Shown here: one piece after another, positions 1-36,542 of the stretch
Layout: each line of letters opens with the position of its first letter
How positions within the stretch are numbered: the stretch's first letter is position 1
IMG/VR virus record: IMGVR_UViG_3300018080_000019
Span: 1-64,000 of that record
Strand: one strand, 5' to 3'
Source of the DNA: a virus
DNA length: 64,000 nt
Made by a program: the position numbers and the translations under genes
The notes under the pieces: model-generated
Told to the model about the DNA's origin: nothing
Database searches by the model: none
What the model saw: only the letters and a program-made list of their open reading frames with translations

Positions 1-61
1 GCGATAGAGCCCGTTGGAATCGACACGGACATCGCAACCACCGACTAACGCGAGGAGCAAA

Positions 62-1058: not shown

Positions 1059-1061
1059 AAA

Positions 1062-1924: not shown

Positions 1925-1938
1925 TAGGAGAGAAACTT

Positions 1939-2415: not shown

Positions 2416-2498
2416 ATCGTTTTCTTCTCCACTGTGTTGGGGTGGGCTTCGCACACCCACCCTGACACGGTAGGACCACACTTTCAAAGGAGCAAGTT

Positions 2499-3349: not shown

Positions 3350-5885
3350 AACTGAACTAGAACGGATGGTGATCCGCCTCGTTGGTGAGTCTTCGCAGTA
3401 CATACAAGAACTACAGAAGGCTCAGCAAGAGAGTAAACGGTTCGTCAACCGTATCGGTGGCCTCATGCAACGGACTGCTCTCCAGATGAGGAGCATCGGC
3501 CTCCGCTTGGGGCTAGCAGTCACGGCCCCTCTTACTGCTCTGGCTTACAAAGCCCGAAGTGAGTTTTCAAACTTCCAGGCTTCACTGAGTACAATGGAAG
3601 GGCTTGTCGGCCTATCTGCTGAGACCGTGGAAGGTTTCAAGGAAGAGATCCTAGCTCTAGCTCCAGCCGTGGGTAAAGCCCCCGCTGAACTGTCAGAAGC
3701 TATGTTCTTCATCACCTCAGCGGGCCTCCGTGGGGAACGTGCCTTAGAAGCCTTAGAAGTCTCAGCAAAAGCGGCCGCCTCCGGCATGGGTTCCACCAAA
3801 AGTGTCGCTGATGCAGCAACCTCTGCGATGAACGCCTATGGCCATGAGAATCTAAGTGCTACTCGCTCTGTCGAAATTCTAACTGCTGCTGTTCGTGCTG
3901 GTAAGGCCGATGCTGCTAGTTTCGCACCCCAATTCGGCCAACTCCTACCGTTAGCTAAGTCCCTTGGCATCAGTTTTGAATCAGTCGCAGGTAGTCTCGC
4001 CTTCCTCACTAAGACCACGGGTAACGCTAGTCTCGCATCAACAGGATTCAAGGGCGTCTTGCGAGCCGTGAACAAGCCTGCCAAGGAAGTGGAAAAGCTT
4101 TTGGAAGAGCAGGGAGTTTCTCTAGCGAAGTTGCAAGAGAACTTCAGCAATATGTCGTTTGATCAGGCTCTCTTCCAACTCAAGGATGCCCTTGATGAAG
4201 CTGGTATTCCACTCAAACGGTTCTTTACTGACAGTGAAGGCTTAACTGCTGCACTCCAGTTCACGGGTGAAGCTAGTAGCGACCTGTCTGCAGTCATCGG
4301 TGACGTAACTGACAGCATAGACATTGTGGATGATGCTTTTGGTAAAACCGCCAAGACGGCAAAGCACCAGTGGAACGCTGCGATGGCAGAGATGAGAACC
4401 CTTATGATCGAACTTGGCGGCATGATTGCCCCGTTCATGGGGGAACTGATTGACTGGGGCGAGTATGCGATGCAGATTTGGAAGGGCCTAAGCGACGGTA
4501 CGAAGGAGTTCGTCGTGGCAGTAGGTGCTGTCGTTGCAGGGGTGAGTCCAGCCCTGCTCATGGTAAGCACACTTATCACTTCCATTGGGACAACCCTGCC
4601 AATCGCTATTATGGCTGCTAATGCTGCTTTCACGGTACTGAGTGCCAGTATGACTCTCATCGCAGCCCATCCTTTCGTTGCTACCCTTGCCGTGCTGACT
4701 ACTGCTTACGTTGCCTACCGTCACGTGGTAAACTCCGCCAACAGAGAGATGGAAGCGTTCAGTGAATCTACTAAGAAAGTAACACACACCGGACAGGCTC
4801 TTATACAACACAACAACCAGATCGCTTTGGAGTTGCAAGACCTTGCCCAGAAGAACGAACTTAACACTCAGGAAATGACCAGGGCAAAAGCAATCATTGT
4901 GGAACTTGAAAAGAGTTACGGTGATCTAGGTATTAGTGTGGATCAAACAACGGGTCAAATAACTGGTTTGACCAGTGGCTTCAAAGAAATGGAAGAAGCA
5001 CAGAGACGGCAACAGAAGGTTCTCCTAGAAGCAAAAATCCGGGATCTGACTGAGGAGTTCAAGGCCCAAGAAAAGGAGTTGAGGAAGTACACCGAGGCCT
5101 GGAGCATCAACGCCTATCGTGCTTACAAGAGCTATTTCACAGATGCAGAAAGTGATATTACTGACAGCATGTCCAGCATCCAATTGAAGCTCATGGACGC
5201 TCAAAATGCTCTTAAGGCACTGACCAAAGGCCCGGAAGATGCCGTGAAAGAAGTCAAGTTAGACATTGTTCAAAAACAGTACACGAACACAGACTACCCC
5301 ATAGCCCGCTTTTGGAGTAAGGCTATGAAGACCCTCAGTGACGGTGCCGCACAAGGTAAAGCGGCCTTAGAGGAAGTACAAGACGGCATCCGCGAAGCCA
5401 GTGAAGAGATGGAACAGTGGAATGAGTACGTGCGACGGGGCAACCAGATCACAAAGCAGTATATGACTCCCCAAGAAAAGTATGCCGCTTCGATGAAAGA
5501 ACTCGACACGCTCTTGGAAACAGGGGCTATTGGACAAGACACCTATAAGCGTGCCGTGAAGGGTGCTAAGGAAGAGCTACAATCTTTAAGCCGAACTGTC
5601 CGTGGTGAAGTGTTGGATGCTCTAGGGGCTGGCACGATGGAAACTGCTGTAGCTTTGGAAAAGTACCGTGCTGGATTGAAACAAGAAGCCCTACCAGAAC
5701 TTCCTGGTCTACCTACTGCCGGACACGAAGAGTGGACTGCCACTACCACCAATCAGACCACTGTCTCTACTGCCCCAAATACTGCTGAGGAGCGTATCGC
5801 TGCCGGAGTGGAAGCCCTGGTAGAAATGTCCCAAGACGCTGGTAATTCCTGGATCATAAAACCTCTTGGACTGAAAGGTCTCTAA
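3339..5885 (+). CDS. tail tape measure protein
   Basis: 848 aa. Follows the G/GT pair. Ala/Leu/Gln-rich helical sequence with a central hydrophobic stretch (VVAGVSPALLMVSTLITSIGTTLPIAIMAANAAF) and coiled-coil-like halves. Confidence 0.85.
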   Translation: MAAETELERMVIRLVGESSQYIQELQKAQQESKRFVNRIGGLMQRTALQMRSIGLRLGLAVTAPLTALAYKARSEFSNFQASLSTMEGLVGLSAETVEGFKEEILALAPAVGKAPAELSEAMFFITSAGLRGERALEALEVSAKAAASGMGSTKSVADAATSAMNAYGHENLSATRSVEILTAAVRAGKADAASFAPQFGQLLPLAKSLGISFESVAGSLAFLTKTTGNASLASTGFKGVLRAVNKPAKEVEKLLEEQGVSLAKLQENFSNMSFDQALFQLKDALDEAGIPLKRFFTDSEGLTAALQFTGEASSDLSAVIGDVTDSIDIVDDAFGKTAKTAKHQWNAAMAEMRTLMIELGGMIAPFMGELIDWGEYAMQIWKGLSDGTKEFVVAVGAVVAGVSPALLMVSTLITSIGTTLPIAIMAANAAFTVLSASMTLIAAHPFVATLAVLTTAYVAYRHVVNSANREMEAFSESTKKVTHTGQALIQHNNQIALELQDLAQKNELNTQEMTRAKAIIVELEKSYGDLGISVDQTTGQITGLTSGFKEMEEAQRRQQKVLLEAKIRDLTEEFKAQEKELRKYTEAWSINAYRAYKSYFTDAESDITDSMSSIQLKLMDAQNALKALTKGPEDAVKEVKLDIVQKQYTNTDYPIARFWSKAMKTLSDGAAQGKAALEEVQDGIREASEEMEQWNEYVRRGNQITKQYMTPQEKYAASMKELDTLLETGAIGQDTYKRAVKGAKEELQSLSRTVRGEVLDALGAGTMETAVALEKYRAGLKQEALPELPGLPTAGHEEWTATTTNQTTVSTAPNTAEERIAAGVEALVEMSQDAGNSWIIKPLGLKGL

Positions 5886-6820
5886 TGTCTGCTACTGTTC
5901 AAGGACTACGAGCAACGTGGGGTGGGGACCGTGACCAAGAAGGTCATCGCACCTATCATGTCGTCCATATCGTAAGGGCCTTGAGGTCTGATGGGCCTTA
6001 TGTCGTTATGCAAGCAAGTGGCCTCCCAGTTGTAGGTAGTTCATGGGCCTTCGGCAACGACTTTGACCCGTGGGCTTTCTGCACGCCTGAGATGCGTGTG
6101 TCAATCCATAAGGAGAAAGAAGGGGACTTTTCTTCTCGAACAAACAGTCTGCAATACTGGAGGGTCCGTCAGACCTTCACAACGAAACCCTTGAACCGTT
6201 GCCAGGATGAGAGCATTGAAGACCCCTTGTTAGAACCACCAAGATACGGTGGATCCTTTGTCAAGTATGTTAAGGAAGTGCAGAAGGACAAAGATGGTAA
6301 TGCGATCCTTACCAGTTCCCGTGAGTTAGTCAAAGGTTCCCTGGTAGAGTTCGATCACAACCGTCCAACTGTTTGGGTAGAAATGAATAGTGCCTCCTTG
6401 GGCCTCTCTACGTTCGCAGCTATGGTTGACAACGTCAACGACGGTGCAATGTGGGGTTTGAGTGCTCGTTGCGTCAAACTCAGCAACGTAACCTGGGAAC
6501 GCAAAATCTACGGTACTTGCGACTTCTACTACACACGACGGTTCGACTTCGACATCCGTTACGATACTTTCGATACCAGTCCCATCGATTCAGGTGTGAA
6601 AGCCTTTGGCCACTGGGACCCAGAAGACAAGGACACTTGGACTACGACTGACCATCTACTAGCTTACAAAGACAAACAGGGGAACTACGGTCGCGTGATG
6701 CTGAACGGTGCTGGAATTCCTATCGCAGACGATGCCGACCCAGTCAACATCCCCGGTGCCCCCGTCGAGTACTATCCAGAAACTAACTTCTTTATCCTTG
6801 GCATCCCAGCCAGTTTCTAA
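5885..6820 (+). CDS. minor tail protein (possible distal tail protein)
   Basis: TAATG overlap with the tape measure stop. First gene after the tape measure. No motif recognised. Confidence 0.4.
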   Translation: MSATVQGLRATWGGDRDQEGHRTYHVVHIVRALRSDGPYVVMQASGLPVVGSSWAFGNDFDPWAFCTPEMRVSIHKEKEGDFSSRTNSLQYWRVRQTFTTKPLNRCQDESIEDPLLEPPRYGGSFVKYVKEVQKDKDGNAILTSSRELVKGSLVEFDHNRPTVWVEMNSASLGLSTFAAMVDNVNDGAMWGLSARCVKLSNVTWERKIYGTCDFYYTRRFDFDIRYDTFDTSPIDSGVKAFGHWDPEDKDTWTTTDHLLAYKDKQGNYGRVMLNGAGIPIADDADPVNIPGAPVEYYPETNFFILGIPASF

Positions 6821-6831
6821 GGAGATAACCT

Positions 6832-7278
6832 ATGAGTGACGAAATTGAATTCCGTGGTGGATTTCATATCCGTAAAGATTCCGGGCAGGATATCCAATTC
6901 GAGCACACAACAAAACCCACTACCTTCAAGGCTGACTTGACGGCCAGTGTACCGAAAGGCCCTACCCCTGGCTCCATCACAGCAACGGTTGCAGGGGTCA
7001 ACGTAGACTTGAGTCAGCTAACTACTCCAGGGTTCTGTTGGATTATGAACCACGACCCTACTAACTATGTAGAGTACGGTATCTGGGACCCTGAAGGGTC
7101 TAAGTTCTATCCCCTCGGCGAATTAGGCCCCATGGAGTTTGTACCTCTCAAACTCTCAAGAAACATCCAACGAGAATACATGACCGGTACCGGGACCACG
7201 GGTGCCGACACTAATCGTCTTCGCATAAAAGCTAATACAGCCTCTTGCGAAGTGAGCGTCAACGCCTTCGAACGATAA
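6832..7278 (+). CDS. hypothetical tail-block protein
   Basis: GGAG upstream. Co-oriented in the tail operon. Confidence 0.45.
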   Translation: MSDEIEFRGGFHIRKDSGQDIQFEHTTKPTTFKADLTASVPKGPTPGSITATVAGVNVDLSQLTTPGFCWIMNHDPTNYVEYGIWDPEGSKFYPLGELGPMEFVPLKLSRNIQREYMTGTGTTGADTNRLRIKANTASCEVSVNAFER

Positions 7279-7291
7279 GGAGCAACTTCAA

Positions 7292-7858
7292 ATGTCAGGA
7301 CCACACTTTGAACCAGAAGACAACGATCCTCTTTTCGAAAAACCCCACGAACCGAAAGATCTCCCAGTAGGTTATGGTCCTCCGCCGGAAGGGTTCGATG
7401 GTGATCCAGCCCTTCTAGGACCACCCCCTTCAACCAACTTAACAGATCGCCTCACGGTAATAGACATCGTCTATTATCAACTAGTTGGTGAAGGCGTCGA
7501 AGAAGACGAATGCCGTTTTGAACGGAGCTTACCCTGCATTGAAGAACAGCCCTACAAGAGACGGTTGAAGGCCACAGAAGAAGCTGCCCCCATCGACCCG
7601 AAGTGGGTAGAAAATCCAAGCATGGTTCGCATCGTAAATCTCGAGGGTAAGTTCTTGCAAAGGCACCCTACGCCCGAACAGTTAGAAGAGGCAGAAGGGA
7701 AGGTTTTAGAACTAGGGTTGTTAGAACTCACGGAGCCCTTGTTCCTAATCCCCCCAGGAGAGTGTCAACGATTCACCCCCAACTTGCCTGTAAACCAGTT
7801 CACAATTCGCAGTCAATGTGGGATTGCCCGTTACATCCTCCAAGTCTATCCGGGATAA
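7292..7858 (+). CDS. hypothetical tail-block protein
   Basis: AAGGAG upstream. Pro/Glu-rich N-terminus. Confidence 0.45.
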   Translation: MSGPHFEPEDNDPLFEKPHEPKDLPVGYGPPPEGFDGDPALLGPPPSTNLTDRLTVIDIVYYQLVGEGVEEDECRFERSLPCIEEQPYKRRLKATEEAAPIDPKWVENPSMVRIVNLEGKFLQRHPTPEQLEEAEGKVLELGLLELTEPLFLIPPGECQRFTPNLPVNQFTIRSQCGIARYILQVYPG

Positions 7859-7864
7859 CTCACT

Positions 7865-8527
7865 ATGCCTCCTGAATTTTATCTACCGAACGCTGACGAC
7901 GTTAAGATTCTACAGGACTTGATCCGTAGGGAAGCTGCTCGTAGGCTCAACGCCTCTATCTCAAGCGAGAATCTCGACCTATGGTATCCCTCAGAAGTCT
8001 TCGTAGCATACACTCCTCTAGGCGGTATACCTGTCATGGAGGTAGTCGACGGTGAATTCGTTCCTGGACAAGCCCTCTGTCGAATTTACCGTATCCTGCG
8101 AGGATCGTCAGAGGCTGAACTTAAACGGGTCTACGCTTTCAACGAACTGGTCTATAATATAAGCTGTGCCGTGGCTATCCCCGCAAGCGTTTTCATTGTT
8201 ATAATGAAAACTAAGTGGGGGGAGTGGGTGGGCTTCTGTCCAGGAGGAGACTCGTGTGCAACTTGTGGAGAAACCGGGACTGGTACTGGGACTGGGACAG
8301 AGAGCGAAACGGGGACTGGCACGGGTACGTGCGAAACCCTCGGAGACTCTTTCGACATCCACGATGTTCCAGAAGTAACAACCCCTTCCCTAAACGATTG
8401 GGTTCTACTAGTAGGTGCTGACGGTTGCGTGAGTAAGATTTCTGCTGAGAACTTCTCTGACTGGGTGTGTAACCGTTGTGATGAAACTGGGACAGGTACA
8501 GGCTCTGACGAAACAGGTACAGGATAA
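7865..8527 (+). CDS. hypothetical tail-block protein with CxxC-(E/D)TGTG repeats
   Basis: Contains CATCGETGTGTGTGTESETGTGTGTC (8270-8329) and a C-terminal CNRCDETGTGTGSDETGTG (8477-8524). Confidence 0.5.
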   Translation: MPPEFYLPNADDVKILQDLIRREAARRLNASISSENLDLWYPSEVFVAYTPLGGIPVMEVVDGEFVPGQALCRIYRILRGSSEAELKRVYAFNELVYNISCAVAIPASVFIVIMKTKWGEWVGFCPGGDSCATCGETGTGTGTGTESETGTGTGTCETLGDSFDIHDVPEVTTPSLNDWVLLVGADGCVSKISAENFSDWVCNRCDETGTGTGSDETGTG

Positions 8528-8793
8528 TGGCTGGTCCAGGCACAGAACTCAGCACACTCCTACACCGTATGGGCATCAATGCCAAAGATGGTCAGTGCCG
8601 ATGCAAAGCCCACATCCGTGAGATGGATAAGAAGGGGTGTCACTGGTGCTCGAACAACATTGGAACAATCATAGACTGGCTGAAGACGGAAGCCACCCGT
8701 CGCAAGCTGGTATTCAATCGTATAATAGCTAGAAACCTTGTGAGGCTAGCTATTTGGAGGAGCCGGAAGAAAGCGGCTCAAGAACACCCTTAG
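8527..8793 (+). CDS. hypothetical Cys-rich small protein
   Basis: TAATG overlap. Contains CRCK..H....C..C residues. Confidence 0.4.
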   Translation: MAGPGTELSTLLHRMGINAKDGQCRCKAHIREMDKKGCHWCSNNIGTIIDWLKTEATRRKLVFNRIIARNLVRLAIWRSRKKAAQEHP

Positions 8794-8809
8794 TCCATTG
8801 GAGCAAGTT

Positions 8810-11218
8810 ATGACTAAGCATGGAAAAGTCGTTTGGCAGTATGGTGTCACCACGGTCCCAGAGCGGTTGGAAACTCTCCTACCCGACACCCTCAAATCCT
8901 TAGAAGTTGCTGGCTTCCCAGAACCTCGACTCTTTGTCGACGGTCCTTATTCTTCTACAGCAAAAGCCCTTGGCCTGCCCACTACTTACCGTGACCCAAA
9001 AGTGCGAGCGTTCGGTAATTGGGTTCTAGCCCTTTGGGAACTCTACTTACGCAACCCCCATGCAGACCGTTATGCTATTTTCCAGGATGACCTAGTAGCT
9101 TACCCCCACCTGCGAGAATACCTCGAGCGGTCTGTCTATCCCCATCAGCATAACAATATGCAACCGGGCTATTGGAACCTATACACCTTTCCAATCAATC
9201 TGACCCTCTGCCCGAAAGACTATATCGGCTGGTATCCTAGCGATCAGTGTGGCAAAGGAGCCGTTGGACTTGTGTTCTGTAAGGATGCTGTGACTACCCT
9301 CCTTAGCCAGTCTCACACAGTAGGTCGCCCTCAAAATATCAAACGGGGTCATCGGGCTATAGACGGGGGTATCGTTACTGCTATGCGAAATGCACGGTGG
9401 CGAGAGTACGTACATAACCCCTCCCTAGTTCAACACACTGGCACAGAAAGCACCTTAGACAATCGTCAGCATGACCTTGCTGACAGCTTCCGCGGTGTCG
9501 ACTTTGATGCACGTAAACTTATTGAAGAAGCCAACGATCCACGGCAAGTCAACCCCAAACGAGGTAAGGTAAAGACCAATCCCCGCTGGGACCGCTTCTT
9601 TTTCAAGGAGGCCCTTGACCTACTCAAGAACGTAGACAATCCCACTATCCTAGAAATAGGTGCTATCCGCGACGCTAGACCAATCGCTGCTCGGGCAGAT
9701 GGCCATGCCACGGTAAAGTGGGCTGAAAGCGGTTATCGTACAATTACGCTTGACACAAGTGCTAAGGCCCTAGATATTACTCGCCGTTTGATTAACGATG
9801 CTCCTAACGTAGAGCTAATCCACGGTGATGGTCTTGCTTACCTTGAAACCTTCCAAGGGCAAATCAACCTACTCTACTTAGACGGCCCTCACCCTGCCAA
9901 GGAAGACGGTGTTAGGTTCAGCCTACTGGCCTATACTAAGGCTCTCCCCAAGATGCCGAAGGGCAGTTTGATCCTAATCGACGACTGCGATATTACCCCT
10001 GGCAAGGGCGATCAAATGGTTCCCAAAGCTGTTCGCGACGGTTGGAAGATTCTGAAGAAGGACCGCCAAGTCTTACTCCAACGTACCACGGCTCCCCAAG
10101 AAGAACCACTACTTGAACCACAAGAACCTGAGAAAGATGCTGACACCCCAACCATTCCCTACACTACTAGCGGTCAGGAAATTGTCGACTTCTTGCGAGA
10201 TGAAGCTAAGGTAACGAGCCGACCTAAGTCCAAACCGAAGGCTAACAAGGAGATCACCCTGATCGGGTATAGTTGTGCGAACGGCCTCGGCGAACTCAAC
10301 CGTCAAATCGCCAAGTACGTAGGTATCGACTACTGGCGAGTCATCCGTCATAAAGTTCTTGGCAAGCAACCCATCCCTAAAAGCATCAAACCAGCAACAG
10401 AAGTAGACCTCCCCAACGGTATCCTACTCTTCACAGAAACACCCTTCCTAAAACCCCAACAGTTGAAGGCTATCAAGGACCGTGGGGGACGTATCGTTAG
10501 CGTCCCCATGCTAGAGTGGACTCCAAAACCTGCCACAGAACCGTGGACAGACTACGTTGACTTGTGGATTTGTCCAACCCGCCAATGTTACGTTACCCTC
10601 TCAGAAGAGGGATACCCCTGCGTGATGTTCCCTTGGCCTATTGACCTCGAGCGGTACACCTTTATCCCTCGAGACACCTTGGAATCCTACCTCTTCATAA
10701 ACGGATTCAGTGGTGGCTTCAGGGGACGCAAAGGGGCAGCTACCGTCAGGCAAGCCTTCTCAGAAGTCGGCTCTAGTCCACTTGTAGTCAGTTCCCAAGA
10801 GCGTGACCTAAACCAAAGGGAACAGTGGAAGAAGTATGGTACTCTCCTAGACCCAATCCAAAGTAATCGCTACCTCTACACCGTGGGAAGCGTATTGCTT
10901 GCTCCTCATCACTGCGATGGTCTCGGCCTAGAACCTATGGAAGCGATGGCTTGTGGTATGCCAGTAATAACCCCTGACGCTCCACCGTGGAATGAGTTTC
11001 CAGCCCTTGCAAGACTCCCGGTTCAACAAGAACGTAAGCGTATCCGCCGACCCTTACCGTGGGTAAGTGTGGACCCCCTTACTTTGCGCGAACGCTGTGA
11101 GGAACTTCTAGGCTCCTCTATCAAGGAACATAGCCGTGAAGTGCGAGCGTGGGCTGAATCACGCGATTGGACTAAGTGTGCTAAAACCTTCCAACGATTA
11201 GTGCAAGGAGAGACCTGA
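8810..11218 (+). CDS. three-domain glycosyltransferase / SAM-methyltransferase / glycosyltransferase fusion
   Basis: ATG 8810 with GGAG 8 nt upstream; the track start 8798 is TTG. N-terminus is GT-A-like (AIFQDDLVAY). The centre is class I methyltransferase-like (ILEIGA..., LYLDGPH, LILIDDCD). The C-terminus is GT-B/GT4-like (GLGLEPMEAMACGMPVITPD). Confidence 0.65.
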   Translation: MTKHGKVVWQYGVTTVPERLETLLPDTLKSLEVAGFPEPRLFVDGPYSSTAKALGLPTTYRDPKVRAFGNWVLALWELYLRNPHADRYAIFQDDLVAYPHLREYLERSVYPHQHNNMQPGYWNLYTFPINLTLCPKDYIGWYPSDQCGKGAVGLVFCKDAVTTLLSQSHTVGRPQNIKRGHRAIDGGIVTAMRNARWREYVHNPSLVQHTGTESTLDNRQHDLADSFRGVDFDARKLIEEANDPRQVNPKRGKVKTNPRWDRFFFKEALDLLKNVDNPTILEIGAIRDARPIAARADGHATVKWAESGYRTITLDTSAKALDITRRLINDAPNVELIHGDGLAYLETFQGQINLLYLDGPHPAKEDGVRFSLLAYTKALPKMPKGSLILIDDCDITPGKGDQMVPKAVRDGWKILKKDRQVLLQRTTAPQEEPLLEPQEPEKDADTPTIPYTTSGQEIVDFLRDEAKVTSRPKSKPKANKEITLIGYSCANGLGELNRQIAKYVGIDYWRVIRHKVLGKQPIPKSIKPATEVDLPNGILLFTETPFLKPQQLKAIKDRGGRIVSVPMLEWTPKPATEPWTDYVDLWICPTRQCYVTLSEEGYPCVMFPWPIDLERYTFIPRDTLESYLFINGFSGGFRGRKGAATVRQAFSEVGSSPLVVSSQERDLNQREQWKKYGTLLDPIQSNRYLYTVGSVLLAPHHCDGLGLEPMEAMACGMPVITPDAPPWNEFPALARLPVQQERKRIRRPLPWVSVDPLTLRERCEELLGSSIKEHSREVRAWAESRDWTKCAKTFQRLVQGET

Positions 11219-12570
11219 TGCACAAGGCACAACGGTTCCGCTCGAGACGGATGAGCAAGGTAGCTCTAAAAGAGCAGCTTCGGCGGCCGCGACCTCAGCT
11301 TAGAGAACACTTCCGCCGAGACAAGAAGTTCAAGGTGATAGCCGTTACCCCAATCCACGAACCTGACGCTCGCAGGTTCCTACCCCAACTCCTGTCTGAA
11401 TTCTTACGGTTGGACTGGGGTGTCGTTTGGCACATCAACAACATTTGGAACCCTGACCTGCTCGATCAAATTCAAGGCTTTAGAAACACCGTGGGCTGGA
11501 CTGAAACCAATCAAACCAACTATCGCAAGTCTGACGGGTGGCGAGCCTTGGAGTTAGCACAGCTTGCAGAACCTGAGTGGGTAGTCCCCCACGACGCAGA
11601 TGAAACGTGGGAGCCGAACGCTCCAAAACTCCTCGAGAAGCTTCTGAACCACCGTGCCCTTTATGTCGTTCCCTGGTATAACATCTGGGCACAGACCGAT
11701 GGAGAGCTACTTATCCGCATGGACAAGCCTTACCTCGGCGTTCGCCCACGGCTCTACCCAGTCGGCCCCTGGCGATGGGAATACCGTAACACGCTCACAG
11801 CTTCCCCTTATTGCTGCCAGTGTAACAACTCCCTCCAAACCTTATCCACGGGGAGCGTTCGTGTACTTCACTGGGGGTTCTCCACCCAAGACTTGCGAGA
11901 ATACCATCATGCCCTATGGAATAACAATAAGGCGGAAGATAGTGACTACTGGTCTTGGATGATGGAAAAGCCCCCACTCCTAAAACCCTTTGACCCCGAT
12001 TGCATCCATGAAAACTTCCACCACACAGACCACGAAGAGATCCGCCTTATTCTCAGGAAAACCCCTGGGACGGGGTGGCTTAACTTCGACGAGGCGTGGC
12101 TTCTGTACCGAACGGCTGAGCAGACACGAGGTCCAATTTTAGAAGTGGGTTCCTACCACGGTAAATCTACTGTCCTACTCGCCCACCTGGGACGTCCTAT
12201 CTACAGTGTAGACCCCTTCCTAGGTTTCGACAAGGGTGACCCAACTGGAGACAAGACCGCTCGAGCCTTCTACAGGAACATTCGTCCCTACCACCGTCTC
12301 ATAGAACACTCTAGGAAACGTGTGGAAGATTGGACTCCTCAACCTTGTGGGTATGCTTACCTCGACGGGGATCATAGCTACGAAGGCACCGTGGCACAAA
12401 TCAAAACGGCCCTGGAGTGTGGAGTTTCTCGCATAGCTGTCCATGACTACAACGACCACGGTGGGGGACTCAAGGTGAAACAGGCTTGTGTAGAGTTGCT
12501 TGGAAAACCCTACGATCGTCGTAGTAAGATGGCCGTGTTCATTGTCCCCCCTAAAGAAGAGGAAGCTTGA
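11218..12570 (+). CDS. GT-A-like glycosyltransferase fused to a class I SAM-methyltransferase-like domain
   Basis: TGATG coupling. N-terminal VVPHDADETW is DxD-like. C-terminal ILEVGSYHGKSTVLLA ... YLDGDHSYEGT resembles the sugar O-methyltransferase type. Confidence 0.55.
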   Translation: MHKAQRFRSRRMSKVALKEQLRRPRPQLREHFRRDKKFKVIAVTPIHEPDARRFLPQLLSEFLRLDWGVVWHINNIWNPDLLDQIQGFRNTVGWTETNQTNYRKSDGWRALELAQLAEPEWVVPHDADETWEPNAPKLLEKLLNHRALYVVPWYNIWAQTDGELLIRMDKPYLGVRPRLYPVGPWRWEYRNTLTASPYCCQCNNSLQTLSTGSVRVLHWGFSTQDLREYHHALWNNNKAEDSDYWSWMMEKPPLLKPFDPDCIHENFHHTDHEEIRLILRKTPGTGWLNFDEAWLLYRTAEQTRGPILEVGSYHGKSTVLLAHLGRPIYSVDPFLGFDKGDPTGDKTARAFYRNIRPYHRLIEHSRKRVEDWTPQPCGYAYLDGDHSYEGTVAQIKTALECGVSRIAVHDYNDHGGGLKVKQACVELLGKPYDRRSKMAVFIVPPKEEEA

Positions 12571-12571
12571 T

Positions 12572-13546
12572 ATGAAAACTGCTGTAGTTGCCGTACCCCA
12601 TAACGATTGTGAAAAGTCTCTACAGTCTATGTTGGAAGCAGTAGGCTATCAGGTGTTCAGACCAGGAGACGGTCTCTTACGAGCCTACAACAGATTCAAC
12701 CGACAGCCCCTTCTCCACAGACTTCCAGTACATAACACCGTGAACGGTATCGATCTGTTTGTCATAATCAAACACTTCTACAACTACCCTCTCCGTAAAC
12801 GGTTCCCCACCCTAAACGGGAAGGTACTCTGGTTCGACATCAACGGTGGCATCCCAGGATCCACTCTAAGTAAAGATCAGTATAAAGCCCTTCCACTCAG
12901 AACCCCTTGTCCCTACTTGGGTGCCAACAAACACTATCAGGATTCTAAGTGTAGTGGACCTCGATACGTGACTTACATTCCCATGGTTGACCGTGGTCGT
13001 TTTGAATGCTTGCGACACAAGCCAGAGCAGTCCCCAGTCTGTCTAGTTCACAACGTAAAGCATTGGGGGTACGGTAGTCTCGTCCAGCCCCTACGCAATA
13101 AAGTCCGGTTCTATGGTAGTCACGGTTCTCCAGCTGGACTTCTCCCTTCAACGAAAGTCCCGCAAACATTGCGAAAGGCCCTTTGCTACGTACACGTGAA
13201 GGGGCGGGACTGTCCTGGCTACAGTCTCTATCAAGCCCTGCTCGCTGCTTGTCCAGTCATAGTCCTAGACCGGTTCATAGAACGAACTGGCTATAGCGAT
13301 CTATACGAGCCTGGAGTGACCTGTCTAGCCGTGAAAGACCCTTGGAAACTGCCCCCGGAAAAACGCTTTCCAAAAATCGTAGCTGGGGTGGAAAAGGCGA
13401 TCGAGGCTCTAAAGGACCCAGAGTACAATCAAACTATCGGCCTTGCTGGCCGTCAACGTTTGAAAGAGTTGATGTGGAATCCACGCGAAGACGCGGAAAC
13501 CTTCAAACATTTCCTCGAGGAAAACTATGGCCCTGGTACTACCTAA
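12572..13546 (+). CDS. glycosyltransferase-like protein (GT-B C-terminal half)
   Basis: ATG 12572 lies just after the upstream stop; the track start 12500 is inside the previous gene. Motif YQALLAACPVIVLDRF...GVTCLAV...AGRQRLKELM resembles GT1-family C-termini. Confidence 0.4.
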   Translation: MKTAVVAVPHNDCEKSLQSMLEAVGYQVFRPGDGLLRAYNRFNRQPLLHRLPVHNTVNGIDLFVIIKHFYNYPLRKRFPTLNGKVLWFDINGGIPGSTLSKDQYKALPLRTPCPYLGANKHYQDSKCSGPRYVTYIPMVDRGRFECLRHKPEQSPVCLVHNVKHWGYGSLVQPLRNKVRFYGSHGSPAGLLPSTKVPQTLRKALCYVHVKGRDCPGYSLYQALLAACPVIVLDRFIERTGYSDLYEPGVTCLAVKDPWKLPPEKRFPKIVAGVEKAIEALKDPEYNQTIGLAGRQRLKELMWNPREDAETFKHFLEENYGPGTT

Positions 13547-14183
13547 CTCCGTGTTCGTCCATGTCCCACGAGCCGGGGGACAGTGGTTCAGAAAGACCGT
13601 AGCTGCTTCGCTGAGCCCTGGCTTGCGTAGGAGGCGTCGGGAAAGCGACCGTCACAATGCTATCGCAGTCTACCATTGTAGCTACTCCGAATTGCCCATC
13701 GACTTCCAGTTAAGACCTTGCTTCGGCTTTATCAGGCATCCCCTACCGTGGCTTCGTTCTCGATGGACCCACCAGAGACAGTTCGGCATCAGCAATCGTG
13801 CTACTGCTCCAATCCACAAGCAGTTCAACTCCTGTTGGAAGCCCACGTTCCCAGCCACGGTAGAATCGATCTTAGGCACTTGTCCGGGGTTAGTCACCAA
13901 GACCTTTGAATACATGCTCGACGGTTGCACGTTCATAGGTCGCGTGGAAGACTTCCCAAGAGCCCCCATCCTAATCCTTCGCATGTGCAACGAACGGTTC
14001 AACGTGAGACCGTTCTTAACGACAAAACCTGTAAACAGTACGGGCAGCCTTCCAGAAAACCAAAAGGACCTCCACTTACCACCGTCGCTACAGAAAGAGT
14101 TTTTGCATTCAGAGTCTGCCTTTATTTCCAAGTGGTACGGCCCTGACTGGTATTCTCCCGTTCGTATTCAGATCAGTTCATAG
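13527..14183 (+). CDS. sulfotransferase-like protein
   Basis: VFVHVPRAGGQWF resembles the PAPS 5'-phosphosulfate loop (h-h-H-h-P-K-x-G-G-T). FIRHPLPWLRSRW resembles the RxPxxRxxS 3'-phosphate motif of the sulfotransferase family. Confidence 0.45.
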   Translation: MALVLPNSVFVHVPRAGGQWFRKTVAASLSPGLRRRRRESDRHNAIAVYHCSYSELPIDFQLRPCFGFIRHPLPWLRSRWTHQRQFGISNRATAPIHKQFNSCWKPTFPATVESILGTCPGLVTKTFEYMLDGCTFIGRVEDFPRAPILILRMCNERFNVRPFLTTKPVNSTGSLPENQKDLHLPPSLQKEFLHSESAFISKWYGPDWYSPVRIQISS

Positions 14184-14192
14184 AGGAAAGCC

Positions 14193-15122
14193 ATGGACCA
14201 GCTTAGAATCTATTATATCGGCAAGTTCCAACTGGACTTTGCTACGGAGCGATATGTTCAGTGGGCTTTGGAAAACCGCCACGGGTGCAACGTGATGCGA
14301 TACAAGGGCCAATCTGTTGAGGACGTGAAAACCATCCTAAAAGAGTACCGTCCCCACGTAGTCCTCTTCAGTAAGGTAGAACCCAAGTATACGGCTAGAC
14401 TCCTAGAGTGGTGTCGTGAAAAGCGTATCCTCACGGTAGCTTGGATTTGGGATCTTTATTGGGGGTGTCGCAGCGAGCGTCCAAAACAGTTTAGGGCAGA
14501 CATGCTTTTCACTACGGATGCAGGTCACCAGAAAGAGTTCAATGCGTACCGCACCAATCACAAAGTCCTGCGTCAAGGCATCCACGAACCTCACCACCGT
14601 ATGTACCTTCCTCCTCAGTATAAGAACAGCGGTGGTCAGATAACTTCAGAGTATCTACACGACGTCGCCTTTGTTGGTGGTGCTACCGGTCATCCCAGCC
14701 GTACAAAGCTAGTCCGCTGGTTGAAGCGTACCTATGGTCCCAGGATGATCCACCATACGAACGTTCGGGGTCTTGATTTGAATAGAGCCCTGGCACGAGC
14801 AAAAGTGGTAGTGGGAGATACGTGGCCTAGTCGTCACTACTGGTCCAACCGTATCTATGAGATCTTGGGTCGTGGGGGGTTTCTATTACACCCAAGAACA
14901 GAAGGTCTCAGCCGGGAGTTTACAGACCGTGTTCACTACGTTGCCTATGAACGTGATGACTTTCCTAGGCTTCGCAGGACCATTGATCATTGGCTTTCCA
15001 ACGAAGCAGAACGGGAGGCAATCAGAAACCGTGGCTTCCAGCTAGTTGGTCGTCACTACACCTACACCGTGCGAACAGCAACTCTCTTAGATTGCATCCG
15101 CACCAGACTTGGGAAAACATGA
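14193..15122 (+). CDS. CgeB-like glycosyltransferase
   Basis: C-terminal YEILGRGGFLLHPRTEGLSREF...YERDDFPRLRRTIDHWLSNEAEREAIRNRGFQLV is typical of the CgeB / Glyco_trans_1_2-type family. Confidence 0.55.
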   Translation: MDQLRIYYIGKFQLDFATERYVQWALENRHGCNVMRYKGQSVEDVKTILKEYRPHVVLFSKVEPKYTARLLEWCREKRILTVAWIWDLYWGCRSERPKQFRADMLFTTDAGHQKEFNAYRTNHKVLRQGIHEPHHRMYLPPQYKNSGGQITSEYLHDVAFVGGATGHPSRTKLVRWLKRTYGPRMIHHTNVRGLDLNRALARAKVVVGDTWPSRHYWSNRIYEILGRGGFLLHPRTEGLSREFTDRVHYVAYERDDFPRLRRTIDHWLSNEAEREAIRNRGFQLVGRHYTYTVRTATLLDCIRTRLGKT

Positions 15123-15127
15123 ATGTA

Positions 15128-15221
15128 TGTGCGGCCCCCTGCCCGTGGTCTCACCTGCGAGAATCAGTAGGCAAGTATGCTCCAACTTGCTTATGCTGAG
15201 AGGGTGGGGCAGGGGCCGCAC
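15128..15221 (+). terminator. long inverted repeat after the last late gene (possible terminator or RNA structure)
   Basis: GTGCGGCCCC(C)TGCCC (15129-15144) pairs with GGGCAGGGGCCGCAC (15207-15221). About 15 bp of stem with one bulge and a loop of about 60 nt, followed by TCTTT. Confidence 0.35.
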
Positions 15222-15300
15222 TCTTTACCTACCTAGTAGCCCCTCATAGGTGTATAAACACTAGTAGGGGGGCTGTTACCCCTAGTTAGTGCAGCTTACG

Positions 15301-15337
15301 CCCCTGCCCTGCCCTTGCCCTACCCTACCCTACCCCC
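15301..15337 (-). repeat. G-quadruplex-type motif (seven G3-5 tracts on the minus strand)
   Basis: Plus strand reads CCCCTGCCCTGCCCTTGCCCTACCCTACCCTACCCCC. Minus strand reads GGGGGTAGGGTAGGGTAGGGCAAGGGCAGGGCAGGGG. Confidence 0.6.
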
Positions 15338-15485
15338 GTGCCAAGGCCCCTGGCTTGCTGTCTAAGCTAAGGCATGGGGGTGGCCAGTATGCCAAGCCCT
15401 ACCCCGGCACCGTGGCTGTATGGCACCCTATGTAATAGGTGCCCCTGTAGCCCCTATAAGTAGGGTATACCCCACTTATAGGCAC

Positions 15486-15521
15486 TAAAAAACCCCCCGC
15501 TACCCAAAGGGCAACGGGGGG
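15486..15521 (-). terminator. Rho-independent terminator of the leftward early block
   Basis: Minus strand has a CCCCCCG...CGGGGGG hairpin (7 bp outer stem plus inner CCC/GGG) followed by UUUUUU. It lies 36 nt past the stop of ORF 15557..15802. Confidence 0.75.
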
Positions 15522-15556
15522 CGACACCCTACTACCAGCCTATACCAGTATACAGG

Positions 15557-15802
15557 CTATACAGGCTTGATACGGATACCGTCGTATCCGTGAGTCTCAG
15601 CGTACTTCCGGGCGGTAGCCAAGTCTTTGCATGGCTTCCACTTCCTGCCCACTAGAATTTCTGTGCGGTTATTGATTCGCCACACATGACGGCGGACTTG
15701 GAGGTAGCGTTTACTTCTTGGTGGGACTTTTGGCACGAGCCTTCTTCCTTTCCTTGGCTTGCTTGCGAAGTTTAGTCCAGTCCTGTTGGGAGCGGGGAAC
15801 AA
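15557..15802 (-). CDS. hypothetical small basic protein (start uncertain)
   Basis: Track ORF. The basic N-terminal part competes with an alternative 35-aa frame starting at 15818. Only the C-terminal part looks globular. Confidence 0.35.
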   Translation of the reverse strand: MFPAPNRTGLNFASKPRKGRRLVPKVPPRSKRYLQVRRHVWRINNRTEILVGRKWKPCKDLATARKYAETHGYDGIRIKPV

Positions 15803-15855
15803 GTCCGTGGGCTTCCATCAGGGCACAATAGCTTGCGTACTCGACCTTTTCAGCC

Positions 15856-16260
15856 TTAGTCGGCTTGATTGCTTTTGGGGCCATCGGTGCCTCCGGTGGT
15901 TGGGGTTGATGTTGTTGGAAAAACGTCGATCGGAGCGAAGGAGATTCTAACGGTGTTGGGGTCTACTTCTAGAACCCTGCGAAGTATGGGGCTATCACTC
16001 GGCCACGTAACTTCGAACAGGATGGGCATACCTTCGTATCTGACTACAAATTGAAAGCCAGGACGAATCTTGGCCCCAAAGTGGGCAGCAACAGCCCTGA
16101 GAAAGTCCTTGCGATTGCTCTCCAAGATGATACGGGCTCTGTCGCAAGCCTTGCTATGCCTTTCCAGGAATGCTTGCTTTTCGTCAGCGAGTTGCTTTGG
16201 CTTTTCTACGGAAGCCAGAAACCGCCCTGCGAGGTTAGTGATCTTCAAACGTGCATCCAT
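15856..16260 (-). CDS. hypothetical protein
   Basis: Internal ATG (MDARLKITN) with GGAG upstream, starting right after the stop of ORF 16272..16568. The longer track ORF to 16419 overlaps that gene. Confidence 0.5.
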   Translation of the reverse strand: MDARLKITNLAGRFLASVEKPKQLADEKQAFLERHSKACDRARIILESNRKDFLRAVAAHFGAKIRPGFQFVVRYEGMPILFEVTWPSDSPILRRVLEVDPNTVRISFAPIDVFPTTSTPTTGGTDGPKSNQAD

Positions 16261-16271
16261 GTGGTTGCTCC

Positions 16272-16568
16272 TCAGTTCTTGGGATGGATGTGGATTTTGT
16301 TGTAGGTACGACCGGTCTTTTCGTCGGTCTCCTTGGTCATGGTGACCTTGCAAAGGCCACGCATCGCCACAGCGACGATGTTCTTTCGCACGGTGCCTTG
16401 AGCCTGTCGTGGATTGCACCGTACAGCAAGGTTGATAAGATGCCCTAAAGCGACGGCTACTTCAGGCTCTTTATTTGTTGGAATAGGGACCGTCACCCTG
16501 TTGATCAGGTCTAGGAAAGCCCTGACTCTTTCACCCAAACTCTCTGCTGTCTCTAAGTAACGTGACAT
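16272..16568 (-). CDS. hypothetical protein
   Basis: AAGGAG lies 6 nt upstream of the ATG, preceded by the (CTACAACCAA)x4 leader. Confidence 0.5.
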   Translation of the reverse strand: MSRYLETAESLGERVRAFLDLINRVTVPIPTNKEPEVAVALGHLINLAVRCNPRQAQGTVRKNIVAVAMRGLCKVTMTKETDEKTGRTYNKIHIHPKN

Positions 16569-16580
16569 TTCAAACTCCTT

Positions 16581-16620
16581 GTGGTTGTAGTTGGTTGTAG
16601 TTGGTTGTAGTTGGTGGTAG
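16581..16620 (-). repeat. tandem 10-bp repeat (CTACAACCAA)x4 in a 5' leader
   Basis: Plus strand reads gtggttgtag ttggttgtag ttggttgtag ttggtggtag. It lies directly 5' of the SD of gene 16272..16568 and 3' of the helicase stop. Confidence 0.8.
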
Positions 16621-16668
16621 AACCCCCGACCAGCCGTGAAGGGACTGGCCGAGGGGGACGCAAGTAAA

Positions 16669-18498
16669 CTAAGCCACCCAGATCAAGCTTTCGATCGCTC
16701 GAGTCACGGCAACGTATTTGAGATGATACTCCTGCCCTTTCGACCAGTGGCTTTTCGCCATTGGATGGGGGAGTGGTGCATCTTTGAGGATTATGAAGAC
16801 CCTTTCGGATTCCAACCCCTTTGCCTTGTGGATGCTGCTGAAGAGGATGCCCTTTGGGGTGAGTAGCTTTGGACCACGGGGTTTTCCACCAGGGCCTAAC
16901 TCGGTCTTACAAGATTTCTTGGGGCAACGGTCCAGTTCCTCTGAGAAGTGGTTCTGGCACTTAGGACACACCTTGCCGGAGAAGATGAGGTTGATATTTT
17001 CTACCACATCCTCGACCGTTTTGGCTCCTTCCGTAAAGGCAATGACACAAGCCCTACGGTCGTCGAGTGTGACTAGTCGCGTTTCGCTAGGTGGCTTCTT
17101 ACGCAACTCCCTGGAGACTTCGTCACCGTGCCACTCCTCGACCCTGTCGATCAGCTTTTCGACGGTAGGAGCCTTCAACTTTTTCTGGATAAAGTTGATT
17201 AGGTTCTTACCAAAGTCTCTTCCGCGGATGATAGCCCTACGACCGTCCTGGAGAAACCGTAGGGCCTGTGAGACAAGTGGGGCGTTCACGCGGCACAGGA
17301 CCATATCCCCGTCTTGGACCAGGGTGGGATACTTTTCCACGGTGGAGAAGTTTTCGCTGCCTTTCAAGTTGTCCTTGTGGGCAGTGAATGGGACATAGGG
17401 TGTTCCGTGGTGAGCAGCGATTGTCCTGAGAATCTTGTTAGCTACCTTGACTACAGCGTGACTACACCGTCGAGTTTCTGTGAGTCTCAGGGACTCGATG
17501 GGAGTGTTTGGATCAGGTGAAAGCAGTAGCTTCATGCGTGGAATGCTGTCTACGTCTGCTCCAGCAAAACCATAGATAGCCTGATTGACATCCCCTACCA
17601 GAACGATCCTGCGTCCCAGCAACCTACTGAACTCCTGCTTGCACCGTGGCAAGTCTTGGCCTTCGTCGATCAGTAGCAAGTCGACTTTCGGGACGGGTAG
17701 ATTCAGGACAACCGGGAGCCAGTTCTGGTCGTTGAAATCGAAAGCCCCCTGGTAGTCTGGAGACAAGCACCGTTCCAACACTCGTGGCACGAGATCGAAT
17801 ACCCTCTTCCGTCTGATATCCAATTCCACTCCATAGTGTCGAACCAACTGCCCGAGAACATCTGGGGTAACAGCTTCAACGTTGAAACCATCCTCTTCGG
17901 TCCAGCCGGTCAGGGTCAGCTTGCACAGATCCACAAGACTGGTCACTGCCTTGAGAAAGACCGTGGAGTTGCGTCGCAAGTCCCACAAGTCACGGCCAGT
18001 AACAGAGGCTATTACCTTTTGGACGTTGTCACGGTCCAGCCTCAGGTAGTTGAAGGAACCCATGACTGCTCGATGCCCCAAACCATTCACCGTGGAAAAG
18101 TTTAGGGTAATGCCTTCCCCAGACAGGATCTCTGCCAGCCAGCCCCAATCCTCTTGAAACTCTTCAACGATGCTACGGTTGAAGGCCGAGTATTGGATGG
18201 TCTCCACTTTGCCTACACTTTCGGCAAAAGCAGACCAGACCTTTTCCTGTTCGGCGGAGGGGGTGATGCGGAACGTCTTGGGGTTCTTCTTTTTCTGGAT
18301 AGCGATCCTGCGTTGGATCTCTTCCCAACGGTGGTTCGCAAAGGCCCATCCAACCCCCACGATTTCCGTGAAGGTTTTGCCTGTCCCTGCGAAGGCTTCT
18401 ACAACCAGATGGTTAGAAGCTACGGTTGACTGTTTGGCAATGTCAGCCACAAAGGAACTCTTCTTTTTGATTTTCTTTTTCTTGGTTCGTGTCTTCAC
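16669..18498 (-). CDS. SF1 (UvrD/PcrA-like) DNA helicase
   Basis: Walker A AFAGTGKTFT, LLLIDEGQDL, VLVGDVNQAIYGFAGAD, ETRRCS, SSIHKAKGLESERVFI and YVAVTRAIESL. Carries a CxxC..CxxxxC insertion. Confidence 0.85.
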   Translation of the reverse strand: MKTRTKKKKIKKKSSFVADIAKQSTVASNHLVVEAFAGTGKTFTEIVGVGWAFANHRWEEIQRRIAIQKKKNPKTFRITPSAEQEKVWSAFAESVGKVETIQYSAFNRSIVEEFQEDWGWLAEILSGEGITLNFSTVNGLGHRAVMGSFNYLRLDRDNVQKVIASVTGRDLWDLRRNSTVFLKAVTSLVDLCKLTLTGWTEEDGFNVEAVTPDVLGQLVRHYGVELDIRRKRVFDLVPRVLERCLSPDYQGAFDFNDQNWLPVVLNLPVPKVDLLLIDEGQDLPRCKQEFSRLLGRRIVLVGDVNQAIYGFAGADVDSIPRMKLLLSPDPNTPIESLRLTETRRCSHAVVKVANKILRTIAAHHGTPYVPFTAHKDNLKGSENFSTVEKYPTLVQDGDMVLCRVNAPLVSQALRFLQDGRRAIIRGRDFGKNLINFIQKKLKAPTVEKLIDRVEEWHGDEVSRELRKKPPSETRLVTLDDRRACVIAFTEGAKTVEDVVENINLIFSGKVCPKCQNHFSEELDRCPKKSCKTELGPGGKPRGPKLLTPKGILFSSIHKAKGLESERVFIILKDAPLPHPMAKSHWSKGQEYHLKYVAVTRAIESLIWVA

Positions 18499-18574
18499 GT
18501 GATTGCTCCATACTAGAGGTGAAGTGTAGTAAAGCCCCCACGATCTTGGACCGTGGGGGATTGGTGGGAATTCA

Positions 18575-18820: not shown

Positions 18821-18870
18821 GGTAAATCTCCTTTGTGTAGGGTGTCAAAAGGTAGTGTCGAAAACGTTGA

Positions 18871-21262: not shown

Positions 21263-21265
21263 AAG

Positions 21266-36487: not shown

Positions 36488-36496
36488 TATGCGCAT

Positions 36497-36525: not shown

Positions 36526-36542
36526 CAGGGCTGCGATGGCTA

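Follow-up and report, generated by a model that had tools for sequence, protein, structure and literature searches.

What acceptor would a tailed phage glycosylate with a series of sugar-transferring, methylating and probably sulfating enzymes encoded at the very end of its tail operon? The question is raised by five consecutive plus-strand genes, here named g1 to g5, at positions 8810-15122 of IMG/VR virus record IMGVR_UViG_3300018080_000019, of which 64,000 nucleotides (nt), hereafter the window, were analysed. The window represents most of the genome (~70 kb) of an uncultivated siphophage, and identical genes are present on contigs up to 70,232 bp. Comparison with related loci indicates that these genes form one version of a hypervariable cassette belonging to a large uncultivated siphophage clade, organized like a tail-attached O-antigen locus and anchored by what appears to be an undescribed family of GT-A glycosyltransferases (GTs). 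Together with a small upstream gene, u88, the cluster is tentatively interpreted, with a probability that falls somewhat short of even, as a late-expressed cytoplasmic machinery for assembling a glycan on the phage's own virion proteins, probably those of the tail tip or fibre.

An Undescribed Glycosyltransferase Family Anchors the Cluster

The first 250 amino acids (aa) of g1 match no family in Pfam, NCBIfam or PHROG, and a profile built from this domain family finds no match among Protein Data Bank (PDB) sequences. The AlphaFold (AF2) model of the domain, computed from a 30-sequence alignment (predicted local distance difference test score, pLDDT, 91.3; predicted template-modelling score, pTM, 0.90), has a GT-A fold. 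The top structures retrieved from the PDB with Foldseek are the GT13 enzymes POMGnT1 (5ggi) and GnT-I (1foa), at E 1e-8 and query template-modelling scores (TMq) of 0.53-0.58, and chondroitin synthase, KfiA and COLGALT1 are further matches (E up to 1e-5, TMq ~0.5). There are 362 PDB matches at E <= 1e-3, and those listed are GT-A glycosyltransferases and related nucleotidyltransferases. A DxD-type motif, FQDD (F91-Q92-D93-D94), follows the strand at residues 87-92 and is invariant across 30 diverse homologues, as is the pattern H202..P204-S-L..H209. To judge from these searches, the domain constitutes a GT-A family outside the named Pfam GT families.

This domain is common to 105 of the 107 protein homologues of g1 (39-60% identity) and was found in 123 IMG/VR contigs, mostly of 50-98 kb, from marine, freshwater and soil samples. 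A scan of cellular genomes, in which each of 185,579 bacterial and archaeal species was represented by a single genome, located it on only 8 contigs of metagenome-assembled genomes (MAGs; 3.8-74 kb), two of which are the same contigs as IMG/VR loci; the anchor family is nearly confined to phage-like contigs. The 8 MAG contigs are binned inconsistently, to Opitutaceae, Dehalococcoidia, Saccharibacteria, Caulobacter and, in four cases, Planctomycetota, so the host cannot be called.

Two further domains complete the g1 protein. The middle one is a class I S-adenosylmethionine (SAM) methyltransferase (MT) domain of the Methyltransf_24 family (Pfam PF13578, E 9e-7, 30.2 bits, cutoff 26.3), and the C-terminal one is a GT-B domain of GT4 type that matches Glyco_trans_1_4 (PF13692; 27.6 bits, cutoff 27), Glycos_transf_1 (E 6e-5) and the glycosyltransferase family phrog_2170. 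PF00534 and PF13692 are annotated on nearly all of the best 75 homologues, and in many relatives the counterpart of the C-terminal domain is a separate gene of ~340 aa. The commonest architecture in the g1 family is a fusion of GT-A and GT-B, and in other members a stand-alone GT-A gene of ~240 aa precedes the separate GT-B gene. The methyltransferase domain is present in only 10 of the 107 homologues, in which it either separates the two GT domains or follows them at the C-terminus; against the common GT-A + GT-B arrangement it represents an insertion.

The gene directly upstream of g1, u88, encodes a Cys-rich protein (CxC...CxxC; CRCKAH...GCHWC) with no Pfam or PHROG match and no transmembrane segment. 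Since 9 of the 107 g1 homologues, and also loci L064 and L071, have a u88-like domain joined to the N-terminal side of the GT-A domain, u88 probably belongs to the sugar-enzyme module, which would move the left edge of the module to position 8527. It may assist the initiating transferase as an adaptor or as a zinc-binding partner.

Proposed Chain-Extending and Tailoring Enzymes

The best-defined of the additional transferases is g5, a CgeB-like glycosyltransferase (Glyco_trans_1_2, PF13524, E 1e-17; phrog_28745 glycosyltransferase, E 6e-22) with homologues in 19 related loci, mostly as the final gene of the cassette. The match of g3 to the same Pfam family is sub-threshold (E 2e-4, 21.8 bits), and PF13524 is matched by all six of its homologues, above the cutoff in three, so that g3 is assigned as a CgeB-like or GT1-like GT-B glycosyltransferase; it is 48% identical to a gene of locus L050, in which gene order is conserved. 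Profile-profile comparison detects no relation between the g3 and g5 families.

The g2 protein joins two domains. Its C-terminal part is a second class I SAM methyltransferase of the Methyltransf_24 family (PF13578, E 3.8e-8, 34.6 bits, cutoff 26.3), with counterparts that are separate genes of 167-173 aa in loci L050 and L011 (48-52% identical). The N-terminal part matches the Pfam GT2 family below cutoff (E 0.011-0.024), its three homologues have no Pfam match, its family profile matches no PDB sequence, and profile-profile comparison shows no relation to the GT-A family of g1. An HDADET motif (D126, D128, E129, T130), invariant between g2 and the three homologues, is suggestive of a GT-like domain, and a homologue of this domain stands alone as a 245-aa gene in locus L050. 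More generally, PDB sequence searches with g1, g2, g4 and g5, and with profiles of the g1 N-domain, the g2 N-domain and g3, returned nothing significant.

The remaining gene, g4, encodes a protein with the predicted fold of sulfotransferases dependent on 3'-phosphoadenosine 5'-phosphosulfate (PAPS). It has no Pfam match itself, and word-indexed homologue searches yielded almost nothing for either g4 or g2, but an exhaustive HMMER search recovered a g4 family of 566 representatives at 50% identity. Sulfotransfer_2 (PF03567) is matched by 14 of 60 aligned members (best E 7e-9), and the family profile aligns with heparan-sulfate 6-O-sulfotransferase (5t03) over both PAPS-binding motifs. These motifs, H-x-P-[KR]-T-G-G-x-W and R-H-P..W..S.W, show little or no variation among the 60 sequences, and correspond in g4 to H12-x-P14-[K/R]15-T-G17-G18 of the 5'-phosphosulfate loop and R70-H-P72-..-S78 of the 3'-phosphate motif; the window protein has R where K is usual in the PAPS loop, as do 26 of the 60 sequences. 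All 50 listed Foldseek matches of its AF2 model (pLDDT 91) to the PDB are sulfotransferase-family structures, although the matches are weak (E 7e-3 to 0.2, TM scores 0.25-0.53). Most of the scanned family members lack a Pfam match. Some members are fused to proteins of ~570-590 aa, and others are repeated domains in very long proteins, for example in one of 2662 aa with 30 matched stretches.

In sum, the evidence supports four transferase domains (g1 N, g1 C, g3 and g5), two methyltransferase domains and one sulfotransferase, and leaves one more GT-like domain (g2 N) in doubt. A preliminary description of the window had counted at least five glycosyltransferase-like domains, a number that is sustained for four and weakly suggested for the fifth. 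Its two class I SAM-methyltransferase-like domains both score above the Pfam cutoff, and its sulfotransferase-like protein is supported by conserved PAPS motifs in the g4 family, the fold matches being weak. From their context, the two methyltransferases would O-methylate sugars.

Organization of the Locus

Public gene calls on an identical contig give a five-gene set with matching sizes (802, 450, 324, 218 and 309 aa), in agreement with the preliminary description of five consecutive, co-oriented genes ending the tail operon; at 6.3 kb of 64 kb, the cluster also takes up the ~10 percent of the window stated there. All five genes lie downstream of the tape-measure and tail-tip genes. At the junctions, g1 overlaps g2 by 1 nt, g2 and g3 are 1 nt apart, g3 overlaps g4 by 20 nt, and 9 nt separate g4 from g5. 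Such packing is consistent with the translational coupling that had been proposed, and coupling would follow from the overlaps and short spacers by inference. The GC content of the cluster equals that of the remainder of the genome.

Across positions 1-17000, promoter-like and terminator-like matches are not commoner than in shuffled sequence, and the scan found no strong hairpin between the tail genes and the cluster. The sole strong hairpin of this region lies beyond g5 and serves the convergent minus-strand operon, and marks the boundary between the tail and glycan operon and the minus-strand helicase operon. The convergent intergenic region in which it is located (15123-15556, 430 nt) also contains repetitive C/T-rich motifs, ccctgccctgcccttgccctaccctaccctaccc, alongside the hairpin terminator.

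Table 1. Positions of the sugar-enzyme cluster, its domains and other features of the window discussed in the text.
Feature	Positions	Strand	Description
Tape-measure gene	3339-5885		Upstream of cluster
Tail protein gene	5885-6820		311 aa; upstream of cluster
u220	7865-8527	+	Fibre-like tail protein adjoining u88 upstream; context gene, speculative acceptor
u220 (Thr-Gly)n tracts	8273-8296, 8309-8326, 8486-8503		Codons varied
u88	8527-8793	+	88-aa Cys-rich protein directly upstream of g1
g1	8810-11218	+	802 aa
g1 N-domain (aa 1-250)	8810-9559	+	Predicted GT-A-fold glycosyltransferase; conserved anchor of cassette
g1 middle domain	9734-9988	+	Class I SAM methyltransferase, Methyltransf_24
g1 C-domain	10220-11218	+	GT-B, GT4-type glycosyltransferase
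g2	11218-12570	+	450 aa
g2 N-domain	11218-12027	+	Possible GT-A/GT2-like domain (weakly supported)
g2 C-domain	12139-12417	+	Class I SAM methyltransferase, Methyltransf_24
g3	12572-13546	+	324 aa; CgeB-like / GT1-like GT-B glycosyltransferase
g4	13527-14183	+	218 aa; PAPS-type sulfotransferase-fold protein
g5	14193-15122	+	309 aa; CgeB-like glycosyltransferase (Glyco_trans_1_2); final gene of operon
Strong hairpin	15492-15522	-	14-bp stem, 10 GC pairs, then T-run
UvrD helicase	16669-18498	-	
5-hmdU DNA kinase	31349-32335		PF18723, E 2e-51
Amino-acid:DNA transferase	33253-34215		PF18724
ThyA-like protein	37497-38882		461 aa

Annotation of the window genes further identifies a terminase (44356-45960), a portal protein (46469-49108) and head-morphogenesis proteins, as well as a family A DNA polymerase in addition to the ThyA-like protein. 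Neither the DNA nor the proteins of the cluster have a match among 50,697 phage records, and with none of them does the portal protein share more than 28% identity; no cultured phage appears to be close to the window phage.

A Hypervariable Cassette Attached to the Tail Genes

The link between the anchor domain and the tail operon extends well beyond the window. A homologue of the 311-aa tail protein is encoded upstream of the anchor, on the same strand and at a median distance of 3.9 kb, in 58 of 80 IMG/VR loci, and in the 19 loci that have the helicase in range the cassette runs up to the convergent UvrD helicase gene, which lies 3.6-10.3 kb from the anchor gene. The cassette varies between loci from 3.6 to over 10 kb in length and in its content of sugar enzymes. 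The commonest Pfam families among 142 cassette proteins of relatives are methyltransferases, GT1/GT4, CgeB-like proteins, radical SAM enzymes, GT2, GDP-mannose dehydratase, DegT aminotransferases, epimerases, UDP-glucose dehydrogenase, GNAT, FkbM and LicD. Relatives from TARA ocean samples retain g1, g4 and g5 (37-43% identity), and g2 and g3 are replaced in them by an epimerase. One 75-kb soil relative (L005) has a UvrD helicase gene downstream of the cassette that is split in two (15846-19108), with two open reading frames between the parts, one of which encodes a GIY-YIG nuclease; this arrangement suggests insertion of a homing endonuclease.

Domain fusion contributes to this variation. The GT-A-MT-GT-B architecture of g1 is found in the window and in the TARA ocean relatives, GT-A-GT-B-MT also occurs, and in other homologues the GT-A domain is fused to GT2, epimerase, radical SAM or TylF-type methyltransferase domains. 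Fusion of the GT-A domain to a tail domain was not seen among the homologues, whose N-terminal partners are GT2, the u88-like domain or sequences of unknown type. In locus L050, homologues of the g2 N-domain, the g2 methyltransferase, g3 and g5 are encoded by four separate adjacent genes in the same order as in the window, which implies that the window fusions join neighbouring genes. The GT-MT fusions are accordingly lineage-specific joins of genes that are adjacent yet separate in relatives.

A viral parallel is provided by A064R of chlorovirus PBCV-1, a soluble protein comprising a GT-A rhamnosyltransferase, a second rhamnosyltransferase and a SAM O-methyltransferase that builds and methylates the capsid glycan (PMC9614988). 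Like g1, A064R combines two glycosyltransferase domains and a class I methyltransferase in one soluble viral protein, although it belongs to a eukaryotic giant virus, acts on a capsid N-glycan, has the order GT-GT-MT rather than the GT-MT-GT of g1 and comes without a sulfotransferase. This precedent means that fusions of the g1 type are not unprecedented, and the GT-MT-GT and GT-MT proteins that had first been called unusual are peculiar in being specific to a lineage rather than in kind.

A Putative Pathway for Virion Glycosylation

A sequence of reactions can be proposed for the favoured reading, in which the cluster glycosylates virion proteins. The GT-A domain of g1, possibly guided by u88, would place the first sugar on the acceptor, and the conserved GT4-type GT-B domain would add the second. 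The variable part of the cassette, comprising the transferases of g2, g3 and g5, the two SAM O-methyltransferases and g4, would then extend the chain and finish it with methyl and sulfate groups, with nucleotide-sugars, SAM and PAPS supplied by the host. Virion proteins would be decorated before or during assembly. Late expression, a protein acceptor, this order of reactions and a methylated and sulfated product are what we infer from the genes.

A virion target, specifically the tail tip, is favoured because of the position of the cluster in the tail operon, the solubility of its products, the near-restriction of the anchor family to phage contigs and a structural match to the orthologue of a glycosyltransferase from a known virion-glycosylation system. 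None of the six proteins (u88 and g1 to g5) has a predicted transmembrane segment, and the maximum 19-residue hydropathy is below 1.5 in each. Among viral structure models, the second-best match of the g1 GT-A domain is gp87 of Mycobacterium phage Ardmore, which at 85% identity is an orthologue of Che8 gp110. According to the account of Freeman et al. 2023 cited in PMC12363180, Che8 gp110 is a glycosyltransferase essential for capsid glycosylation. Virion glycosylation systems attributed to mycobacteriophages comprise Che8 gp108-110, Corndog gp38 and Myrna (Freeman et al. 2023, as cited in PMC12363180 and PMC12619734), and the mycobacteriophage capsid and tail-tube subunits carry their glycans at the C-termini (PMC12619734). 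The resemblance to the window cluster lies in soluble glycosyltransferases that the phage encodes and that modify its structural proteins within the cytoplasm, an activity that is putative here. Unlike the Che8 genes, which are located at the right end of the genome, the present cassette is attached to the tail genes, is larger and is hypervariable between relatives.

Several points weigh against this reading. The likeness of the g1 GT-A domain to Ardmore gp87 is at the level of any two GT-A proteins (TM score ~0.57, 15% identity), and neither BLASTP nor a family hidden Markov model (HMM) gave a significant match between Che8 gp108-110 and the cluster. The Che8 glycosyltransferase genes lie away from the tail genes, and proximity to tail genes is therefore no defining feature of the known system. 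Soluble GT4, GT2 and CgeB-like enzymes also build lipid-linked polysaccharides, and the sugar-nucleotide synthesis genes of the relatives would suit a bulk polysaccharide equally. Finally, the acceptor is putative, and the argument draws on the genomic context of an uncultivated phage.

A candidate acceptor was sought among the tail proteins, and its rejection also counts against glycosylation of the virion. The gene adjoining u88, u220, encodes a fibre-like protein in which the N-terminal ~125 aa are conserved across 32 loci and the C-termini are variable (231-948 aa), and which contains (Thr-Gly)n tracts. In 83 loci, such tracts number 74 in 228,519 aa on the tail side and 0 in 212,867 aa elsewhere (0.06 expected by chance), and they are absent from six relatives without the GT-A domain; the association between tracts and GT-A presence gives a Fisher p of 0.12 when locus L134 is counted as negative. 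Tracts of (TG)>=5 are also present in over 120 unrelated viral contigs, among them those of filamentous and giant viruses, that lack both the GT-A domain and the tail protein, and no glycosyltransferase is found in the 25 commonest Pfam families of 104 proteins neighbouring these unrelated tracts. Being widespread without glycosyltransferases among the commonest neighbouring families, the tracts provide no evidence for glycosylation, and the proposal that they are O-glycosylation acceptors was rejected. The tracts are more plausibly flexible linkers of a generic kind in adsorption proteins, although those of the window could act as acceptors. Across loci L007-L086, the tail-side tracts include a conserved GTGTGT loop in homologues of the 148-aa protein encoded at 6832-7278 and linkers between the domains of the fibre-like protein.

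Alternative Targets of the Glycan

The strongest competitor of virion glycosylation, although unlikely on balance, is remodelling of the host envelope, in which the soluble transferases would act at the inner face of the membrane on lipid-linked intermediates of O-antigen, capsule or teichoic acid, and the changed surface could block superinfection or the re-adsorption of progeny to debris. Lipid-linked acceptors are compatible with enzymes that lack transmembrane segments, and the GT4, GT2 and CgeB-like families of the cluster, together with the sugar-nucleotide genes of its relatives, are typical of polysaccharide loci. The same interpretation has been given to the glycosyltransferase and deoxy-sugar genes in the hypervariable tail-fibre region of pelagimyophages, which were read as modifying the host O-chain (PMC7029224). 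Those phages and the cyanomyophages resemble the window in that variable glycosyltransferase and sugar-synthesis genes adjoin tail-fibre genes (PMC7029224), but the pelagimyophages are SAR11 myoviruses with mostly GT8 enzymes, whereas the present loci belong to siphophages with a conserved GT-A + GT-B anchor pair. Against remodelling of the host, the window encodes no initiating phosphoglycosyltransferase, flippase, polymerase or GtrA/B/C-type membrane protein, and neither these nor the Wzx, Wzy and Gtr families rank among the 25 commonest of the 50 Pfam families that occur in the 142 cassette proteins of relatives. A position at the end of a late structural operon would fit neither lysogenic conversion nor early exclusion, and the anchor GT-A domain is essentially absent from cellular genomes, in which a recruited host enzyme should have relatives. 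The GtrABC and Oac systems of O-antigen modification likewise alter a surface glycan by phage-encoded sugar transfer. Gtr systems consist of integral membrane proteins, are encoded beside the integrase and are expressed in lysogens. The window cluster has neither the membrane proteins nor the integrase-side position nor the lysogenic expression of such systems.

Two other products can be envisaged. A free or secreted methylated and sulfated oligosaccharide or glycoconjugate, with a function in signalling, as a decoy or in a matrix, or the modification of a non-virion protein, would account for an acceptor that is only putative on the favoured reading, and the radical SAM, aminotransferase and LicD genes of the relatives recall natural-product tailoring sets. 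This explanation is nonetheless improbable, as export or scaffold genes are missing and the clade-wide linkage to tail genes is left unexplained. Less probable again is the transfer of sugars to hydroxymethylated pyrimidines of the phage DNA for evasion of restriction. The window does encode a candidate ThyA-like hydroxymethylase, and phage GT-A and GT-B enzymes place mono- to trisaccharides on 5-hydroxymethylcytosine (5hmC; Pyle et al., bioRxiv 10.1101/2023.12.21.572611). In the pathways described by these authors, the glycosyltransferases are clustered with the base-modifying enzymes to which they are linked (5mYOX or ThyS; Pyle et al., bioRxiv 10.1101/2023.12.21.572611), and a DNA target is unlikely here because the modification module of the window is separate. 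The hydroxymethyl-base pathway has enzymes of its own in the replication region at 31-39 kb, 16-22 kb away from the cluster and beyond a divergent operon, and in 163 related loci the 10 kb around the cassette contain no HMUDK, ADDT or ThyA-like gene. Genes for DNA hypermodification usually lie together. Compared with the known DNA-glycosylation clusters (the alpha- and beta-gt genes of T4, and those linked to 5mYOX or ThyS), the window shares GT-A and GT-B enzymes and a ThyA-like gene in the genome, but its cassette is 16 kb from the nearest base-modification gene and the cassette methyltransferases are not DNA methyltransferases. Five transferase domains with O-methylation and sulfation would also exceed any reported DNA glycan, and co-expression with tail genes would presumably be late relative to replication. 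Of the three roles put forward in the preliminary description, virion glycosylation is thus the best supported, by genomic context; host-glycan remodelling persists as a real rival, and sugar decoration of DNA is disfavoured. A role in defence was rejected as well, PADLOC having returned only a methyltransferase-domain similarity to mad2.

Significance

Self-glycosylation by phages and other viruses, and variable regions rich in glycosyltransferases beside tail fibres, are kinds of system already known. What is new is a previously undescribed GT-A family, nearly restricted to phage contigs, that serves as the anchor and has both a fixed GT-B partner and a candidate adaptor, and an O-antigen-like variable cassette tied to a tail operon that includes a sulfotransferase among its tailoring enzymes. 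To our knowledge, phage virion glycosylation has been shown in only a few actinophages, and a limited literature search yielded no account of a sulfotransferase that is encoded by a phage and acts on virions. If virion proteins are indeed the target, virion glycosylation would be a widespread trait among environmental siphophages (123 or more IMG/VR contigs), modular and highly variable, and a variable tail-tip glycan would affect adsorption, host range, protease stability and recognition by host or grazer defences. A more specific proposal, considerably more speculative than virion glycosylation as such and rather unlikely in its full form, is that the phage GT-A family and the u88 adaptor start proteoglycan-like O-glycans on tail-tip proteins, which the hypervariable cassette then diversifies with methyl and sulfate groups. 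This would be the first case of a bacteriophage virion coated with sulfated glycans, and a second layer of variation in host range or anti-defence, evolving like a bacterial O-antigen locus. The GT-A family and the mostly unannotated sulfotransferase family of g4 are also targets for enzymology, and the natural GT-MT fusions indicate enzymes that act in sequence.

Additional Features of the Window

The hydroxymethyl-base genes listed in Table 1 belong to a thymidine-hypermodification module (31349-38882) that also includes a protein with an OTCase-like carbamoyltransferase domain and an asparagine-synthase/GATase protein. The content of this module predicts an amino-acid-derived, possibly carbamoylated or amidated, modification of 5-hydroxymethyldeoxyuridine (5-hmdU) in the phage DNA. 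On the minus strand at 21265-21342, ARAGORN reports a transfer RNA-like gene with an undetermined two-base anticodon, '(at)'. Within the head module, a 447-aa protein (53096-54439) has weak PHROG matches to head maturation protease, and its C-terminal part (aa 353-416) has a weak PHROG match to an ADP-ribosyltransferase exoenzyme toxin (E 6e-6), so that this protein could carry an ejected or virion-borne toxin domain.

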